From Streptosporangiaceae bacterium (lineage in GTDB: Bacteria > Actinomycetota > Actinomycetes > Streptosporangiales > Streptosporangiaceae): a stretch of DNA of 64,000 bases. Where the stretch lies: contig DASXMP010000127.1 in NCBI GenBank assembly GCA_036495585.1, forward strand, positions 12,749-76,748, in the 5' to 3' direction. The position numbers and the translations under genes are program-made. Under the pieces are notes generated by a model that had not been told where the DNA came from, searched no databases, and was given only the letters and a program-made list of their open reading frames with translations. How positions within the stretch are numbered: position 1 is the first letter of the stretch; every line of letters begins with the position of its first letter. Below, one piece after another: positions 57,093 through 64,000 of the stretch.

Positions 57093-57268
57093 GATGCTCG
57101 CCCGACCGCAGGGTAGGTGGGCTGCGGCCGGATCACGGCGATGAAGTGCAGGCTGAAGCCCCTGGCGCAGGCCCGGCACTCCCACTCGCCAGCGTCCGAG
57201 CTTGCGGGACGGAGATTTTCCTCGCCGCAGTACGGGCAGAAGAATGGGATCTGGCGTTCGCCGGTCAC
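57089..57268 (-). CDS. 59-aa zinc-ribbon-like micro-protein (not in the ORF track)
   Basis: [63 protein letters not shown]...CRAC provides four Cys. The GTG overlaps the sirA TGA (GTGA) and its TGA overlaps the cysG ATG (ATGA). Confidence 0.7.
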   Translation of the reverse strand: MTGERQIPFFCPYCGEENLRPASSDAGEWECRACARGFSLHFIAVIRPQPTYPAVGRAS

Positions 57269-58950
57269 GCTGCCGCCTCCGGCCGGGCCGCCTGCGCGAC
57301 CGGCTCAGTCTGGGTCAGCAGCGCAGGGTCGGCGCGCCGCACCCAACTGGCGAACGCCTCGCCGTCTGCCCGGTTGGCCTCGAAGTTGCGGAGCAGCCGT
57401 TCGACGTAATCGGTGAGCCCTGCCGAGGTGACCTTGAGGCCGCGCAGCTTGCGGCCGAAGCCCGGTTCGGTCCCGAGCGAGCCACCCAGGTGCACCTGGA
57501 ACCCTTCCTCGCCGTCGACGATCGAGCCCTTCAGGCCGATGTCGGCGAGCTGGAAGCGGGCGCACGAGTTCGGGCAGCCGTTCACGTTGATCGTGACCGG
57601 GGTGTCGAAGCCAGGCAGCCGGCGGCTCAGTTCGGTGTACAGCTCGCGTGCCCGGCCCTTGGTCTCGACGATTGCCAGCTTGCAGAACTCGATGCCCGTG
57701 CAGGCCATCGTCCCGCGCCGGAACACGTTCGGACTGGCCTGAAGGTCAATCGCGGCAAGTTCGGCCGTGAGGCCCGGCAGGGCTCGTTCCCCTATATCGA
57801 GAAGGAGAAGCTTCTGCTCGATGGTGGTGCGTACCCGGCCCGAGCCGTACGCCTCTGCCAGGTCCGCGACCTGCCACAACTGCGTCCCGGAGGTGCGGCC
57901 GGTGTGCGGGGCGACGCCCAGGTACCAGCGGCCGTCGCGCTGGCGATGGGCGCCGAGGTGATCGCGGGAGCCGGCGGCTGGCGCGGGCGGCGGCCGACCG
58001 TCGGACAGGGCGCCAGCCAGGTACTCGGTCTGCAGGACCTCGCGGAAGCGCTCGGTGCCCCAGTCGGCGACCAGGAACTTGAGCCGGGCGCGGCTGCGCA
58101 GCCTGCGGTAGCCGTAGTCGCGGAACAGGCGTGCTACGCCGGTCCAGACCTCCGGCACCTGGTCGGCCCGGACGAACACGCCGAGGCGCTGCGCCAGCAT
58201 TGGGTTGGTGGAGAGGCCGCCGCCGACCCACAAGTCGTAACCGGGCTCGCCGCCTGGGCCGACGACGCCGACGAAGGACACGTCGTTGACCTCGTGGGCG
58301 GTGCACTGGCTGGCGCAACCAGAGATCGCGGTCTTGAACTTGCGCGGCAGGTTGGTCAGGTCGGGGCTGGTCGTCGCGATCAGGTCGGTCGCGTGGATGG
58401 CCGCCGATGCGTCGATGACCTCGGCCGCGTCGAGGCCGGCCACTGGGCAGCCGAGGATGTTGCGCGGCACGTCGCCGCAGGCTTCCTGGCTGGACAGGCC
58501 CACCTCCTCCAGCCGGGCCCAGATCGCCGGGACGTCCTCGATCCGGATCCAGTGGAACTGGACGTTCTGCCGGTCGGTGATGTCCGCCAGGTCGCGGCCG
58601 TACTCTTTCGCCACTTCGGCAACTGCTCGGAGCTGGGGCAGGTTCAGCTGACCGCCCGGGATGCGGACCCGCATCATGAAGTAGGGGTCCTCGATCTCCG
58701 CGTCCTCCAGGGCACCGGTTCTGCCGCCGCCGATGCCGGGCTTGCGCTGGGTGTACAGGCCCCACCAGCGGAATCGGCCGCGAAGGTCGCTCGGGTCGAT
58801 GGACTCGAAACCGAGGTGGGCATACCGGTTCAGGATGCGCTCGCGGACGTGCATCCCGTCGTCGTCCTTCTTGAATCGCTCGGCCGGGTTGAGCGGCTCA
58901 TGGTGGCCGAGGGCCCACTGGCCCTGGCCGCGAAGCTGCTGGGATGGCAT
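57265..58950 (-). CDS. sirA: Ferredoxin-dependent sulfite (nitrite/sulfite) reductase hemoprotein
   Basis: The siroheme/4Fe-4S Cys cluster is CTGIEFCKLA...NVNGCPNSCA. The fold is duplicated NIR_SIR. ATG 58950 follows GAAGGA. Confidence 0.9.
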   Translation of the reverse strand: MPSQQLRGQGQWALGHHEPLNPAERFKKDDDGMHVRERILNRYAHLGFESIDPSDLRGRFRWWGLYTQRKPGIGGGRTGALEDAEIEDPYFMMRVRIPGGQLNLPQLRAVAEVAKEYGRDLADITDRQNVQFHWIRIEDVPAIWARLEEVGLSSQEACGDVPRNILGCPVAGLDAAEVIDASAAIHATDLIATTSPDLTNLPRKFKTAISGCASQCTAHEVNDVSFVGVVGPGGEPGYDLWVGGGLSTNPMLAQRLGVFVRADQVPEVWTGVARLFRDYGYRRLRSRARLKFLVADWGTERFREVLQTEYLAGALSDGRPPPAPAAGSRDHLGAHRQRDGRWYLGVAPHTGRTSGTQLWQVADLAEAYGSGRVRTTIEQKLLLLDIGERALPGLTAELAAIDLQASPNVFRRGTMACTGIEFCKLAIVETKGRARELYTELSRRLPGFDTPVTINVNGCPNSCARFQLADIGLKGSIVDGEEGFQVHLGGSLGTEPGFGRKLRGLKVTSAGLTDYVERLLRNFEANRADGEAFASWVRRADPALLTQTEPVAQAARPEAAA

Positions 58951-59400
58951 TGCTGGTCCTTCTGCTGGAAGCGCTGCGGCTATGGCGGCGTGCACAAGAC
59001 GGCAGCCTGCGCACGAGGCCGCTGCCCGGCTGATCCGGGCGGGCTAGGGAGTGCGAGGAAGCTGACTCAGCAGGAGGTACGACAGATGGCGCTGGAAACA
59101 CGCAGCAGATCGATGTGACGCCGGCAGACAAGCCACGGGCCGCGGCAGGCGGTCGGGCGGGTCACTACGGCCTCCGGAGGCTAGGTCGCTGCGCTCGCGC
59201 GCCGCGAGGGACTCGGCGGTGCAGGTCGCGCCACGCTGCGCTGGTCACGGTGCCGACGGGCCAACCTCTGGAAGGCGCCGATAGCACTTCTAAGACGGTA
59301 ACATCCGCGACCTGGGATCGCGCAACAGCAAAACCGGTCAGTAGCGAAAGCCTAACCTGCCCTCGGTGGTGCCCGGCCCGTCCGTCCTGCCCGGGCGTGG

Positions 59401-59480
59401 GTACTGGTCCGGTCCGCCCGGTGCTGGCCTGGTCCGCCTGGTGCTGGCCCGGCCGCCCGGTGCTGGCCCGGCCCGCCGGT
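59401..59480. repeat. About 3.5 copies of a 20-bp tandem repeat (GGTCCGCCYGGTGCTGGCCY)
   Basis: The units are at 59411-59430, 59431-59450 and 59451-59469 (one base shorter). Degenerate copies flank them. Confidence 0.85.
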
Positions 59481-59630
59481 AGGGTTCAGCCCGCCAGAGG
59501 GTCCAGCCCGAACGATGGGGTCCGGCACCCGTCGATACGCGTTGGTCGGCCAGTCGATGTAAACGCCTCGTCAACGCGCCTGCCGACCGGCTTCGTCCTC
59601 ATTGCGCTGAGCCGATCGGCAGGCCTTGTG

Positions 59631-59816
59631 CTATCCGGTTAGGTGGTGTAGTTGCTGCCAGACTTCGATGACCGCGTAGCCAATCCCGGCGATCATCGCG
59701 GTTGCGATCACGATGATCATCAGCTTCAGTATCTTGCGCCAGAACGCCACGACCGCGATCGCGATGAGCACTACTACGATGCGGATGGCTTCGGCATTCT
59801 GAGCCGCGGCCTGCAT
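59631..59816 (-). CDS. 61-aa two-TM hydrophobic micro-protein
   Basis: AAAGGAGGTG lies 7 nt upstream of the ATG. The product is MQAAAQNAEAIRIVVVLIAIAVVAFWRKILKLMIIVIATAMIAGIGYAVIEVWQQLHHLTG. A 12-bp imperfect hairpin lies downstream at 59581-59625. Confidence 0.7.
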   Translation of the reverse strand: MQAAAQNAEAIRIVVVLIAIAVVAFWRKILKLMIIVIATAMIAGIGYAVIEVWQQLHHLTG

Positions 59817-60398
59817 GTTTCAACACCTCCTTTCGGCGACAGCCGGCCGGAGGGCCAAGCGAGGCGGCAACTTCCACCTGTTTCACACGGGTATCTTGCA
59901 TTCACCCGCTAGGCAGGTAGCATGATCCCATCACTTGGCCCACCTTTGGTTGGTTCGGTTCGGGTGACTGGCACGGTCGATGGCGTCAACATCGGCCGTG
60001 CTTTTGTGTCAGCTGTGTTTCGGCGTCTTCGCATGCCCCCTTTCCTGCCGCCGCCGACCTGCCCGCAGCGTGGCCAGGTGGTGCAGGCGGCGCACATCAG
60101 CCCCTTTCACGGTCTCATAGCTTTTGGCATTTGCCAATGGCGTTCGCTTCTGTAACCGGCCATTGTGGTATGGCGCGGACCGCTGGCCCCGTCCCGGCCG
60201 CCGTCATCTGGCTGTGCTGGCGCTCAGAAGGTCGTCGCCTTGTCTCAATGAATGACCAGGTCACAGGGTCAGACGAAGGGGCTGAAGATTTTCTCAGGGC
60301 GCGTGTGTCGGCCTAGGTGCACAGCCGCCATTCAGGTGTATCGTCATCCTGTGGCAAATGCCAATGGCGATGTTGGACGCGCGCCGATTGCTCGGCGG

Positions 60399-61283
60399 GT
60401 GCCGGGTCAGCGTCCGGCCGCCGAGGTGGCGGAGGACGCCAATCCGACCGTGCGGCAGCGGGAGCTTGCCCACCGGCTGCGGGAGTTGCGCCTCGCCAGC
60501 GGCCTGACCGTGGAGCAGGTCGGTGCCGAGCTGCTGTGCTCTGCCACCAAGATCAGCCGGATCGAAACGGCGGCGCGCCGCGCCAGCTTGCGGGATGTCC
60601 GCGACCTTTGCCTGGTCTATGGGGTTGCCGACCCTGGTGAACTGATGGAGCTAGCCACCAGGGCGCGGGAGCGCGGCTGGTGGTCCCGCTTCGACGATCT
60701 CGCCCTCGAGCCCTTCATCGGGCTAGAGCAGGAAGCGACCGTCATCACCTCGTACACGATGTACTGGGTTCCTGCGCTGTTTCAGACCGCGGACTATGCG
60801 ACGGCCATCATTCGGGGGATTGGCCGAAAAATGGATCCCCGTGTCCTCAACGACCGGGTAGAGGCTAGGATTCTGCGCCAGAAGCGGCTTGAAGGTGTGA
60901 GACCACCGCGATACCGGGCGTTGACCGACGAAGCGGTCTTCCGGCGACCAGTTGGCGGTCCCGCAGTAATGAAGGCTCAGCTCGACAAGATCCTGACGTG
61001 GACAGCTCTCGGCCGAGGTTCGATTCAGGTGATCCCGTTCAGCGCCGGTGCGCATGCGAGTTCCGACACGAATTTTGATCTGCTGGAATTCGGGGATGCT
61101 GCACTGCAAAGTCCTGTGGTGTATGTAGAGAGCCTGATGGGCGCTTTTTACTATGAGCGCCCCGCCGAGGTCGAGCGATACCGCGAGTCGATCGAGTACC
61201 TGCGGGAAGCGGCGCTCAGCACCCAGGACTCGCTCGCGCTCATCGCTGGGATCCGAGATCAGCTCTCAGCCGCTTCTAGCTGA
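60399..61283 (+). CDS. XRE-family HTH regulator with a DUF5753-type C-terminal domain (WhiJ-like)
   Basis: The HTH is LRELRLASGLTVEQVGAELLCSATKISRIETAARR. The C-terminal domain contains WWSRFDD, VPALFQTADYA and IQVIPF. The start is uncertain among in-frame GTGs at 60336, 60351 and 60399. Confidence 0.8.
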   Translation: MPGQRPAAEVAEDANPTVRQRELAHRLRELRLASGLTVEQVGAELLCSATKISRIETAARRASLRDVRDLCLVYGVADPGELMELATRARERGWWSRFDDLALEPFIGLEQEATVITSYTMYWVPALFQTADYATAIIRGIGRKMDPRVLNDRVEARILRQKRLEGVRPPRYRALTDEAVFRRPVGGPAVMKAQLDKILTWTALGRGSIQVIPFSAGAHASSDTNFDLLEFGDAALQSPVVYVESLMGAFYYERPAEVERYRESIEYLREAALSTQDSLALIAGIRDQLSAASS

Positions 61284-61322
61284 GGTCCATTAATCCCAGT
61301 TAGTACCTTAAGAGGAGACTAA

Positions 61323-61532
61323 ATGCTGCAGATACCGCAGAGCCTTGGAGACCTCTCGTGGCGCGTCGCACGCAAGTGCAATGGCGGGCAGTGTGTTCGC
61401 GTGGCGGTGCACGGAGACGAGATACTCGTCGGTTCCACGAAGCAGGGCGGTGGCCCGGTGCTGGCCTATAGCCGCGAGGAGTGGGCGACGTTCGTCGAGG
61501 GCATCCGCCAGGGCGATTTCGACGACATCTGA
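61323..61532 (+). CDS. DUF397-domain small protein (BldB-like partner of XRE/WhiJ regulators)
   Basis: GAGGAG lies upstream of the ATG. The motif is WRVARKCNGGQCVRVAV. It is 69 aa and starts 39 nt after the XRE gene. Confidence 0.85.
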   Translation: MLQIPQSLGDLSWRVARKCNGGQCVRVAVHGDEILVGSTKQGGGPVLAYSREEWATFVEGIRQGDFDDI

Positions 61533-61580
61533 GGACGCCGTCCTCCTCCCCGCAGCGGAAGGTACTCCGGTCGGCTTAGC

Positions 61581-61619
61581 GCCCGGGGACATGCTGGCAG
61601 TATGCCCGCGTCCCCGGGC
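61581..61619. terminator. 10-bp stem hairpin between convergent DUF397 and AAA+ genes
   Basis: gcccggggac, a 19-nt loop, then gtccccgggc. Confidence 0.45.
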
Positions 61620-61627
61620 CCGGCCAG

Positions 61628-62809
61628 TCACCGCCAGGGCTCGGCCCCAATCGTGGCCGATGGCCCGGTCAGCGCCGAGCCGGTCGGTCCGGCGCCGACG
61701 TCCGCGGCGTCCAGGCGCATCAGGTCATCCTTGCCCCAGCGGCGGCCGAGGTCGCTGGCCAGGCGGAACGCATGCTTGAGCCTGGCTTGCTCCAGTTCGT
61801 TGCGCACGCTCCGGGCGTTGGCGAAATGCGGGTGCCCCATCTGAGCCGCGATGCGGTCACGGAATGCGGCTTCGGCGTCCGATGACAAGTAGTAATTCGT
61901 ATCCCGAAGCATGAGCTGCCCGATAGCCGAGAGCTCGTCAAGCTCGTACGCCGCGAAATCGAGATGGTGAGCGATTCGCGACCGCATGCCCGGGTTGTAA
62001 TCGAAGAACTCGTCCATCCTGTCCTTGTAGCCAGCCAGGATGACCACCAGGTTGCCGCGGTCCTTCTCCATCACCTGCAGCAATATGTCGATGGCTTCCT
62101 GGCCGTAGTCCTTAGAGTCGGATGCCCGGTACAGGTAATAGGCCTCGTCGATAAAGAGGACGCCGCCCATCGCGCGGTCCAGAATCCGCTTGGTCTTGGG
62201 TGCGGTATGCCCGACGTACTGGCCGACCAGGTCGTCGCGCATCGCATGAATGAGCTTGTCCTCCTCGATGTAACCCAGCCGGTGCAGCAGCTCGGCCATG
62301 CGCAGCGCCATCGTCGTTTTGCCAGTGCCTGGCGGGCCAGTGAAGCACATGTGCAGGGTTGGTCGCGGCGTGCTCATGCCGAATTTGCGCCTGGCCTGGT
62401 CGACAAGGAGCAGAGCCGCGATTTCCTCGACCTTCCTTTTGACCGGAACGAGCCCGATCAGGTCCCGGTCGAGTGCGCCAAGGATGTCGTCGATGGCGGT
62501 GGCGTTCCGCTCCGTGGCGAAGTCAATGGTCGCACTCATCGGCAAGATCTGTGTCTGACTGGCCTTCTTCACCCGGCGTCGGCCACGGTGCCGCTGGTCG
62601 CTCGTGTGCGTGGAGGTCTTGCGCGCCTTCGTCCGGCTACCCGATATATTCCGATTGCCGGGTTCGCTCTTGTCGGTGCTGCGGGAGCTTGCCATCGCGA
62701 GCGCAGACAGGCCGATGAGGACCGCGACGGCCGCGGCGGCCGCGACGATCAGGCCTAGTGCGTGGCTCATCCGGCTCGCCCCCATTCGCGTCGCCTGTTG
62801 CACTGTCAT
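61628..62809 (-). CDS. CbbX/SpoVK/EccA-type AAA+ ATPase with an N-terminal TM helix and a highly basic linker
   Basis: The core of ~300 aa carries Walker A GPPGTGKTT, Walker B VLFIDEAY, and NLVVILAGY, MRSRI and FANARSVRNELE. In-frame upstream lie ALGLIVAAAAAVAVLIGLSALAMA and RTKARKTSTHTSDQRHRGRRRVKK. Candidate starts are ATG 62809, 62785 and 62770. The internal ATG 62539 has no SD. Confidence 0.8.
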   Translation of the reverse strand: MTVQQATRMGASRMSHALGLIVAAAAAVAVLIGLSALAMASSRSTDKSEPGNRNISGSRTKARKTSTHTSDQRHRGRRRVKKASQTQILPMSATIDFATERNATAIDDILGALDRDLIGLVPVKRKVEEIAALLLVDQARRKFGMSTPRPTLHMCFTGPPGTGKTTMALRMAELLHRLGYIEEDKLIHAMRDDLVGQYVGHTAPKTKRILDRAMGGVLFIDEAYYLYRASDSKDYGQEAIDILLQVMEKDRGNLVVILAGYKDRMDEFFDYNPGMRSRIAHHLDFAAYELDELSAIGQLMLRDTNYYLSSDAEAAFRDRIAAQMGHPHFANARSVRNELEQARLKHAFRLASDLGRRWGKDDLMRLDAADVGAGPTGSALTGPSATIGAEPWR

Positions 62810-63131
62810 CCGAGGATGACGTGGCCCTCTTGCATCCGCAAGACGCTGCCCGCTCGCATTTGGAGCGCGTTGTATCTGGATGCGTCGTATCAGGATGACA
62901 GAGCGGCGCCAGGCCCCTGCGGGCGCGTAGCCAGGAACTTCTCGATATCCGGCTCCGCCTGCGGAGGCGGTGGCACGCTGCGGACTGGGGGTCGGCGCCG
63001 GCCGCCGCTTCCGCTGGGTGCCCCGCGGCCTTCGCTGGCCGCCCCGCCGTCGCGGTCCTCGACCGTGCGCGCCGCGCCGGGAGGCGGGGCCCGGTTGTCG
63101 GGATCGCCCGGCCCGGATTAGCCTGGCGCCC

Positions 63132-63326
63132 GTGCGACTGACGGACTTCTGGGCCAAGATGCGGAAGCAGTTTGGCGATGTCTACGCCGAGAGCGTGGCC
63201 AAGGATCAGGTGCTCGCTGCCCTGGGCGGCCGGACCGTGGAGCAGGCCCTGGCTGACGGCGAGGACGCCAAGATCGTCTGGCGAGCCGTGTGCGAGACAT
63301 TCCGCGTCCCAGAGCGGATGCGGTGA
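63132..63326 (+). CDS. DUF3046-family protein (the conserved small gene normally found upstream of actinobacterial recA)
   Basis: VRLTDFWAKMRKQFGDVYAESVAKDQVLAALGGRTVEQALADGEDAKIVWRAVCETFRVPERMR aligns by eye with the mycobacterial recA-upstream protein. GTG start. Confidence 0.8.
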   Translation: MRLTDFWAKMRKQFGDVYAESVAKDQVLAALGGRTVEQALADGEDAKIVWRAVCETFRVPERMR

Positions 63327-64000
63327 CGCAGCCACTGGTCGGCCCGCCTGGGGCGCCAAGGACTGCGGCCGGCGCCGCCCCGATCGCGGAAGCTGCGGCC
63401 GGCCCGCTCGCGGCAACCGGAGCAGCAGCCAGCAAGCCTGTTGCCGCGGAGCCTGCCGCCTTCCCGCCGACCGGGGCGGCCGAGCCGCATGCCGGGGCTC
63501 CGGACGCGGCGGTCGGCCCGTCGGTCAGTGCGGAGCAGCGACGCCTGGTGCTGGTGTCCGGGCCGCCGGGCTCCGGCAAGAGCACGCTCGCCGGGCCGCT
63601 GGCCGCGGAACTCGGGTTCGCTTTGCTGGCCAAGGACCGGATCAAGGAAACCCTGCACGACTGGCTCGGCCAGGCCTCCGACCTCGTGTGGTCGCGGCGG
63701 CTCGGCGCGGCGGCGATGGAGCTGCTCTGGGCACTGGCGGCGGATGCACCGGCGGTAGTGCTTGAAGCCAACTTCTGGCCCGGTGATACCCGCGTCACGA
63801 GTCACCTCCGGGAGCTGTGCGCGTCGCCGGTCGAGGTGTATTGCCAGTGTCCGGAGGCGGAGTGCGTCCGCAGGTATGCGGCGCGGGCATCGTCCCGGCA
63901 TGAGGTGCATGTGATCTCGGCGCTGTCGCCCGAGGCGTTCGAGCAGTGCTCCGGGCCGGTTGGGCTCGGCCCGATAGTCGACGTGGACACGACCCGGCCG
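63323..64000 (+). CDS. P-loop NTPase/kinase (AAA_33-like) with an A/P-rich N-terminus; 3' end lies outside the window
   Basis: The GTG overlaps the DUF3046 stop (GTGA). The frame is open to the window end and is absent from the ORF track for that reason. The P-loop is LVLVSGPPGSGKSTL. Confidence 0.65.
   Translation, partial: MTQPLVGPPGAPRTAAGAAPIAEAAAGPLAATGAAASKPVAAEPAAFPPTGAAEPHAGAPDAAVGPSVSAEQRRLVLVSGPPGSGKSTLAGPLAAELGFALLAKDRIKETLHDWLGQASDLVWSRRLGAAAMELLWALAADAPAVVLEANFWPGDTRVTSHLRELCASPVEVYCQCPEAECVRRYAARASSRHEVHVISALSPEAFEQCSGPVGLGPIVDVDTTRP

Follow-up and report, generated by a model that had tools for sequence, protein, structure and literature searches.

A predicted membrane-anchored AAA+ ATPase family of soil actinomycetes, apparently sister to the Rubisco activase CbbX

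We analysed a 64-kb stretch of DNA from a Streptosporangiaceae bacterium (hereafter, the window) and focused on a minus-strand gene (61628–62770; 380 amino acids plus stop codon) encoding a CbbX-like AAA+ ATPase with a predicted membrane anchor. From the N-terminus, the protein comprises a predicted transmembrane signal-anchor helix (residues 4–27, 62690–62761), a disordered polybasic linker (residues 30–75, 62546–62683) with an Arg/Lys cluster immediately before the ATPase module (RHRGRRRVKK, residues 60–69, 62564–62593), an AAA+ N-extension (62450–62545), the AAA+ α/β subdomain (61964–62350), the α-helical AAA lid subdomain (61697–61879), and a variable, uncharged, and disordered C-terminal tail (residues 354–380, 61631–61711), all encoded on the minus strand. 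An earlier reading of this DNA, made without database searches (the sequence-only reading), had described a CbbX/SpoVK/EccA-class core fused to a hydrophobic N-terminal helix and a very basic segment, and had treated a membrane-tethered version as unusual. The fusion is present. Two homologue searches yielded, among their top matches, 216 sequences complete enough to judge, and 210 of these have an equivalent fusion. The locus itself is not an oddity, because the same architecture defines a large family with at least two subfamilies at no fewer than eight genomic positions. By sequence comparison, the protein belongs to a large uncharacterised family of soil Streptosporangiaceae/Trebonia-like actinomycetes; in a tree, this family and the red-type Rubisco activase CbbX are sister clades.

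The core matched AAA (PF00004) and AAA_lid_6 (PF17866) in Pfam. Classification with profile hidden Markov models agreed with the clade proposed earlier: the NCBIfam model cbbX_cfxQ ranked first with 408 bits, followed by SpoVK (248 bits) and EccA (210 bits). The assignment can be narrowed to the CbbX branch proper, since identity to operon-encoded CbbX is 57–61% and that to EccA and β-helix fusions is approximately 41%. Among solved structures, R. sphaeroides CbbX (3SYL/3ZUH) was matched with an E-value of 2e-99 and 57% identity over approximately 260–280 residues, and the EccA1 structure with an E-value of 7e-48. Foldseek TM-scores to CbbX were modest (0.43–0.57) despite the 57% identity, probably due to the approximately 80 disordered N-terminal residues and the angle between the subdomains, and the identity call therefore rests on the sequence match. 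The EccA model (TIGR03922) covered only the C-terminal AAA+ part and scored 210 bits against a cut-off of 466.65; no TPR domain was found in the Pfam scan, and no ecc genes lie nearby. No peptidase domain was detected in the Pfam and NCBIfam scans, in which the FtsH model reached 14.9 bits against a cut-off of 600.

The N-extension (LPxxATIxFxxER...LDRDLIGL) contains invariant Leu, Pro, and Glu-Arg residues, corresponds to the N-extension of CbbX, and aligns with residues 8–36 of the R. sphaeroides protein. The α/β subdomain carries Walker A (GPPGTGKT, 62315–62338), pore loop 1 (GQYVGH, residues 183–188, 62207–62224), which aligns with GQYIGH of R. sphaeroides CbbX (RsCbbX), Walker B (LFIDEA, 62141–62158), sensor-1 (LAGY, residues 245–248, 62027–62038), whose Gly and Tyr are invariant in 239 members, and the arginine-finger motif NPGMRSR (N259-P-G-M-R263-S-R265, 61976–61996). 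The motifs of this subdomain are conserved in 239 family members and five CbbX proteins. In the arginine-finger motif, the Asn and the second Arg are invariant, and position 263 varies among Arg, Ser, and Gly in the family and in operon CbbX alike. Sensor-2 (FANARS, residues 316–321, 61808–61825) has an invariant Arg, and the pore-loop-1 aromatic residue equivalent to Tyr114 of CbbX is Tyr or Phe across the anchored family. When the family was compared with CbbX over 260 aligned columns, 109 positions were invariant in both and eight were fixed differences, including E124R and V105A/T106M (RsCbbX numbering). Walker A and B, the Tyr114-equivalent aromatic residue, the Arg194 equivalent, the GY of sensor-1, Asn188, and sensor-2 are kept in both groups. 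The sections of a clade survey used here give GY in sensor-1, an Asn four residues before the arginine finger, and a sensor-2 Arg as signatures of the SpoVK-EccA-CbbX clade, and describe a bihelical hairpin upstream of Walker A (PMC11513918). All three signatures were found in the window protein, and the AlphaFold2 model predicts helices 98–108 and 113–134 (385-residue numbering) directly ahead of the Walker A strand. Overall, the protein contains a complete CbbX-type AAA+ module in which all catalytic and pore-loop motifs are intact.

The assignment of the start codon decides whether the hydrophobic and basic segments are translated. The minus-strand frame at 61628–63157 contains 509 codons without a stop, of which 116 lie upstream of 62809. 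The guanine-plus-cytosine (GC) content of the window is 69.6% and long open frames occur in every frame, so the openness of the ATPase frame alone is weak evidence. GC at the third codon position is 0.75–0.95 from approximately 62800 to the stop codon, including the hydrophobic segment, the basic segment, and the AAA+ core, and 0.45–0.6 at 62830–62980, upstream of the candidate ATGs. The coding signal hence spans both N-terminal segments and ends near the ATGs at 62809, 62785, and 62770, with no onset at the internal ATG at 62539. The positional orthologue P0003, which is 69% identical and, like the window gene, is preceded by divergent DUF3046 and AAA_33 genes, allowed the start to be placed by DNA alignment of the window with the orthologue loci L092 and L093. 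In the upstream region, the sole alignable block is GGGGGCGAGCCG(A)G-ATG-AGCCAC, that is, a Shine-Dalgarno (SD)-like run (GGGGG, 62779–62783, minus strand), 8 nt, and then ATG 62770 followed by the rest of the Met-Ser-His codons. The orthologue loci read CAG and AAC where the window has the ATGs at 62809 and 62785. The internal ATG 62539 is CCG in L092, and the residue that matches its Met is Pro or Ala in 99 of 118 homologues (those with at least 25 residues ahead of the core among the best 120 matches). The sequence-only reading had seen no SD element at 62539, and none was found there in our analysis; since the Met is not conserved either, an internal start is refuted. The N-terminus of the window protein (MSHALG...) matches that of P0003 (MSHVIG...). 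By these alignments, translation begins at ATG 62770, not at 62809, and certainly not at 62539. Because ATG 62770 alone is conserved among the candidates, the predicted product has 380 residues, and the 393-residue form proposed earlier is 13 codons too long. GC in the ATPase core falls to 0.60–0.63, and horizontal acquisition of the gene was considered and rejected: third-position GC there is host-like (0.8–0.9), and the dip stems from second-position composition.

The first 29 residues of the 380-residue form (MSHALGLIVAAAAAVAVLIGLSALAMASS) are uncharged. As a measure of hydrophobicity we used the best 19-residue Kyte-Doolittle value (KD19), with KD19 ≥1.6 as the helix criterion. The transmembrane prediction suggested by the sequence-only reading, carried out on the 380-residue form, gave a KD19 of 2.63 and a helix at residues 4–27. 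An AlphaFold2 model built from a 37-sequence alignment predicted, in 385-residue numbering, a helix at 3–34 with a predicted local distance difference test (pLDDT) score of approximately 92, disorder at 35–80 (pLDDT approximately 42), and then the AAA+ fold; the C-terminal tail has pLDDT values below 50 and is not conserved in the homologue alignment. The linker of the window protein is 46 residues long, with 14 Lys/Arg against three Asp/Glu, a net charge of +11, and 21% Arg, and it includes the basic segment RTKARKTSTHTSDQRHRGRRRVKK (residues 46–69).

This arrangement is shared across the family. Among the 118 sequences defined above, 116 have a helix (median KD19 2.76) at the extreme N-terminus, and the two exceptions are explained by contig-end truncation or mis-called starts. 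Their linkers are 33–81 residues long, with net charges of +3 to +19 (median +9). In the second subfamily, 94 of 98 sequences with at least 25 residues ahead of the core (101 assessed) have the helix, and the linkers, which are longer (median 70 residues, median net charge +11), carry a further conserved motif (QQGLGALPTIQR) that lies after the helix and before the Arg cluster. Over the whole family, linker length ranges from 33 to 114 residues and net charge from +3 to +19. Counted back from the invariant Leu-Pro, Lys/Arg residues cluster at positions –14 to –4, with a peak of 107 of 118 sequences at –8. In these proteins the C-terminal tail, also disordered, is neutral (Lys+Arg 7.7%, Asp+Glu 10.4%, median net charge 0). 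Positional conservation of the Arg cluster, together with the neutral tails, indicates that the basicity of the linker is selected and is not an effect of composition. Across homologues, the median net charge rises from 0 ahead of the helix to +9 to +11 behind it, and the positive-inside rule accordingly predicts a cytoplasmic AAA+ module (N-out, C-in). One variant, P0221, has two N-terminal hydrophobic helices, and its AAA+ module is again predicted to be cytoplasmic. The uncharged n-region, the long h-region, and the strongly basic downstream flank argue against a cleavable signal peptide. The protein is therefore predicted to cross the membrane once, by a single signal-anchor helix, with little or no N-terminal sequence outside the cytoplasm and with a basic tether on the cytoplasmic side.

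The best 120 matches of the first homologue search were 61–100% identical to the window protein, and a search seeded with the distant member P0236 revealed the second subfamily. The anchored family, with its two or more subfamilies, runs to hundreds of distinct sequences. A neighbour-joining tree of 260 columns, built without bootstrap values, places both anchored subfamilies and P0221 in one monophyletic group that is sister to operon CbbX. Identities within the tree set were 72–86% inside the family, 59–61% between the family and CbbX, 74% within CbbX, and approximately 41% to the outgroups. Among annotated plasmid genes, those annotated as cbbX are 51–60% identical, and the next tier (Streptomyces β-helix fusions, EccA, and Bacillus AAA proteins) does not exceed 42%. 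All 80 genomic relatives are metagenome-assembled genomes from soil, labelled Streptosporangiaceae, Trebonia, Nocardiopsaceae, or "uncultured Actinomycetes", and at least three of them hold two copies. The homologues carry only the names "AAA family ATPase" or, from the Joint Genome Institute (JGI) pipelines, the automatic "probable Rubisco expression protein CbbX".

In an exhaustive representative search, the anchored family collapsed into a few clusters at 50% identity. The top 150 matches of this search (P0121–P0269) were dominated by giant proteins of about 750–3,800 residues with three to eight tandem CbbX-like modules, such as P0121 (2,233 residues, eight matched stretches) and P0231 (3,823 residues). 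They head the ranking because the scores of their modules add up.

A gene-order comparison of the window with the related loci L001–L080 placed the anchored family at eight or more conserved syntenic positions. With X as the ATPase gene, these are leuS–X–lexA; serine hydrolase–X–...DinB–TetR–MFS; acyl-CoA dehydrogenase–X–acyltransferase; sensor kinase–X–symporter; FAD oxidoreductase–X–ECF sigma; permease–X–malic enzyme; X–α/β hydrolase; and the window's own DUF3046–X. The neighbours across related loci are unrelated housekeeping genes, and no conserved gene partner was found among 1,220 clustered predicted neighbour proteins. The best co-occurring neighbour cluster, an MFS transporter present at 22 of 81 loci, reflects synteny within one orthologous group. 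In one syntenic group, the ATPase gene lies 16–39 bp downstream of a membrane sensor-kinase-like gene, and the two may form an operon.

The protein resembles CbbX (RsRca, TIGR02880) in its N-terminal helical extension, Walker A and B, pore-loop-1 Tyr, arginine finger, sensor-2, and lid, and a hexameric pore-threading mechanism is probably common to both. It differs from CbbX in its N-terminal transmembrane helix and polybasic tether, in its multiple paralogous loci, and in having no cbbL-cbbS-cbbX operon or Rubisco nearby. With SpoVK and EccA, it shares the GY sensor-1, the Asn four residues before the arginine finger, and the sensor-2 Arg, but at only approximately 41% identity. Both of these proteins are soluble, and where SpoVK has a small β-rich N-domain and EccA has TPRs or a β-helix, the window protein has a membrane anchor. 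According to the survey sections cited, SpoVK acts on MurG at the forespore surface, EccA acts on type VII secretion substrates and mycolate enzymes, and the clade is made up of specialised chaperones that work at specific places in the cell, in many cases close to a membrane (PMC11513918). These precedents at membrane surfaces favour a membrane-surface remodeller of one or a few membrane-associated clients.

Two membrane-anchored machines outside the clade are also informative. The same sections place the AAA+ domain of FtsH as the sister group of the SpoVK-EccA-CbbX clade (PMC11513918). Like FtsH, the window protein would form a classical AAA+ ring that is anchored in the membrane and sits on its cytoplasmic side, but FtsH spans the membrane with two helices and also has a periplasmic domain and, at its C-terminus, an M41 zinc protease, whereas no peptidase domain was detected in the window protein; FtsH also usually lacks the sensor-2 Arg that is present here. 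A parallel in layout is found in eukaryotes. Msp1/ATAD1 is a membrane-protein extractase with one N-terminal transmembrane anchor, a linker, a single AAA+ module, and no protease. The shared layout offers a functional analogy for a tethered threading ring, although Msp1/ATAD1 belongs to a different AAA+ clade and kingdom, has no specific sequence relationship to the window protein (whose top matches are CbbX), and has a short and structured linker in place of a long and disordered one.

In classical AAA+ rings, N-terminal elements lie on the substrate-entry face, and six N-terminal anchors would consequently turn that face to the membrane. We propose that the ATPase forms a hexameric ring, as CbbX does, and that its six anchors would hold the substrate-entry face toward the cytoplasmic membrane surface, as in FtsH and Msp1. 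The Arg/Lys cluster beside the ring would probably dock on anionic lipid head groups. Through ATP hydrolysis and its pore-loop aromatic residue, the ring would exert a transient pull on the client, at a loop or a terminal tail, and the client would be remodelled and not degraded. This anchor geometry and lipid docking imply that the clients are probably proteins embedded in or associated with the membrane, such as enzymes of envelope biosynthesis, in parallel with the clade relatives SpoVK and EccA. Where a genome holds several paralogues, these may act on different clients. The model follows that of CbbX, whose hexamer docks by its top face and whose pore-loop Tyr transiently pulls RbcL's C-terminal tail (PMC5437159, PMC5385338). 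The anchored family retains this machinery with little change.

On balance, we lean slightly towards this function, a hexameric pore-threading remodeller at the cytoplasmic membrane face with a membrane-proximal client. The ATP-driven remodelling of a membrane- or nucleic-acid-bound substrate suggested by the sequence-only reading survives in its first half, in that a membrane-proximal client is plausible; its second half gained no support. Several points weigh against the function we favour. We infer, rather than observe, hexamer formation, ATPase activity, membrane insertion, and orientation. With a disordered tether of 33–114 residues, the ring would not have to face or touch the membrane, and the anchor might only raise the local concentration. 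Since no gene partner is conserved, no particular client can be put forward. A Rubisco gene may be located elsewhere in the carrier genomes. Finally, the strongly conserved α-helical/lid subdomain may indicate that the family has kept the sugar-phosphate regulation known from CbbX, and such a switch would fit a metabolic rather than an envelope role.

A broader proposal, which we put forward only tentatively and regard as doubtful, is that the family is a protease-less bacterial counterpart of Msp1/FtsH, a tethered threading ring of common descent with the Rubisco activase, which extracts, unlocks, or reactivates membrane-embedded or membrane-associated proteins, with client-specific paralogues in soil Streptosporangiales. 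To our knowledge, FtsH is the only well-studied membrane-anchored classical AAA+ protein in bacteria, and a protease-less anchored ring would, if confirmed, represent a new type of membrane-surface remodeller in bacterial proteostasis.

The long basic linker could instead bind nucleic acid, so that the protein would hold in place or remodel, at the membrane, a complex bound to DNA or RNA. We consider this unlikely. The linker has 21% Arg and a conserved cluster of approximately ten Lys/Arg residues, and some related loci adjoin lexA. The window copy adjoins a DUF3046 gene, and DUF3046 genes often flank recA in actinomycetes; recA does not follow the DUF3046 gene of the window. However, the Pfam and NCBIfam scans detected no nucleic-acid-binding domain, the promoter region has no SOS box, and the lexA/leuS neighbourhood is only one context among eight or more. 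Topology and binding to anionic lipids offer a simpler explanation for basic juxtamembrane segments.

Less likely again is that the protein is a true Rubisco activase, that is, a membrane-tethered actinobacterial CbbX orthologue that reactivates a red-type or form IE Rubisco encoded elsewhere. Its 57–61% identity to operon CbbX is near the 60–70% identity of red-algal CbbX isoforms to RsRca (PMC5385338), the 109 shared invariant positions include the α-helical subdomain that binds ribulose-1,5-bisphosphate in CbbX, and the JGI pipelines annotate the homologues accordingly. However, CbbX in proteobacteria is described as always lying in an operon with the form IC (red-type) Rubisco genes (PMC5437159). 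The cbbL-cbbS-cbbX order was confirmed in our controls, C. necator pHG1 and A. carboxidovorans, and no Rubisco large-subunit motif was found in the 64-kb window and 81 related loci (1.5 Mb in total). Against the curated cut-off of the CbbX equivalog model TIGR02880 (459.25 bits), the window protein scored 408 bits, six anchored proteins including it scored 405–423 bits, all below the cut-off, and the controls scored 546 (C. necator CbbX) and 536.5 bits (A. carboxidovorans CbbX). In the tree, the window protein falls outside the CbbX group, in its own sister group. The family is also found at several paralogous positions, some genomes having at least two copies, and a membrane anchor is hard to square with a soluble 550-kDa client. 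The scores below the equivalog cut-off, the separate sister clade, the lack of Rubisco nearby, and the several syntenic positions together indicate that, by context, the protein is probably not a Rubisco activase.

Full-text searches found no description of a membrane-anchored CbbX-type protein. The sequence-only reading had called for a survey of N-terminal architectures in the clade and had asked whether anchored homologues are common and already characterised. The cited sections of the clade survey list TPR, β-helix, β-prism, and helicase N-terminal domains, and no membrane anchor is listed there (PMC11513918). Anchored homologues did prove common, but no published characterisation of them was found: the architecture is common in one uncultured-rich lineage, yet uncharacterised. 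CbbX is the best-understood AAA+ motor specialised for the repair of one enzyme, and reviews merely suppose that it descended from a general pore-threading chaperone. An approximately 60% identical, membrane-anchored, Rubisco-unlinked sister clade provides a concrete comparison group for the origin of CbbX. If the family is indeed a counterpart of Msp1/FtsH, then, as the nearest outgroup of CbbX, it would show from which type of chaperone the red-type Rubisco activase was recruited. On the practical side, hundreds of family proteins are automatically labelled "probable Rubisco expression protein CbbX", a possible source of false autotrophy signals in soil metagenomes.

Two plus-strand genes, convergent with the ATPase gene, follow its 3′ end in the window: an HTH_31+DUF5753 gene of the Sco1979 family (60252–61283) and a DUF397 gene (61323–61532). 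The sequence-only reading had linked the ATPase to this "TA-like" pair, and on this basis the ATPase could act as the effector in a module of toxin-antitoxin-like or defence type. All three genes lie side by side in the window and in its nearest relative, the 88%-identical contig L081, and PADLOC returned weak matches to the IetA ATPase. The pair adjoins the ATPase gene in these two contigs only; none of the 80 related loci has it, nor does the positional orthologue locus L092, where a sulfite reductase gene lies 528 bp after the ATPase gene. In the window, approximately 2.6 kb separate the ATPase and sulfite reductase genes, and this stretch (59000–61600), which has a GC content of 0.57–0.65 against 0.70 for the window as a whole, is missing in L092 and present in L081. 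Given its absence from L092 and the 80 loci and its position in the lower-GC stretch, the convergently transcribed pair appears to be a lineage-specific insertion and not a functional partner, and its link to the ATPase is incidental. The PADLOC scan gave only noise-level matches (best, IetA ATPase, 33 bits) that reflect generic AAA+ similarity. A defence or toxin-antitoxin role is thus very improbable, and comparative synteny essentially refutes it.

The least credible alternative, an untranslated extension (a soluble 303-residue protein from ATG 62539) or a hydrophobic segment that is a cleaved secretion signal, could appeal to the CbbX profile match starting four residues after the Met of 62539 and to the A-M-A that follows the hydrophobic stretch, but it is refuted by the comparative data, as 62539 has no SD element and its Met is replaced by Pro or some other residue in nearly every homologue, third-position GC is high upstream of it, the helix and linker are kept in 210 of 216 homologues, the lack of a positive n-region, the h-region of 24–29 residues, and the strongly positive downstream flank are the opposite of a Sec signal peptide, and an exported ATPase would be without ATP.

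The lower-GC stretch resembles an insertion of a WhiJ/BldB-type regulator pair. It also contains a minus-strand open reading frame (ORF) of 61 residues (59631–59816; MQAAAQNAEAIRIVVVLIAIAVVAFWRKILKLMIIVIATAMIAGIGYAVIEVWQQLHHLTG), which is mostly hydrophobic, apparently with two helices, and has no Pfam match; a similar 60-residue counterpart in L081 suggests that it is a real small membrane protein.

On the other side of the ATPase gene, the divergent intergenic region (62771–63131, 361 bp) is approximately 180 bp longer than in L092 and L093, and its extra GC-rich stretch has no counterpart in these loci. No sigma-70-type promoter, actinobacterial SOS box, or Rfam match was found in this region. 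It is followed on the plus strand by the DUF3046 gene (63132–63326, GTG start, 64 residues) and by a P-loop AAA_33-type ORF with the motif GPPGSGKST (63332–64000), which runs past the end of the window. The same divergent pair of DUF3046 and AAA_33 genes precedes the orthologous ATPase gene in L092–L094. Beyond the inserted stretch lies a minus-strand gene for a NIR_SIR sulfite/nitrite reductase (57265–58995), followed downstream by an unannotated gene for approximately 450–490 residues and one for a CbiX-type chelatase, and this sulfur-assimilation/sirohaem cluster is syntenic with that of L081.

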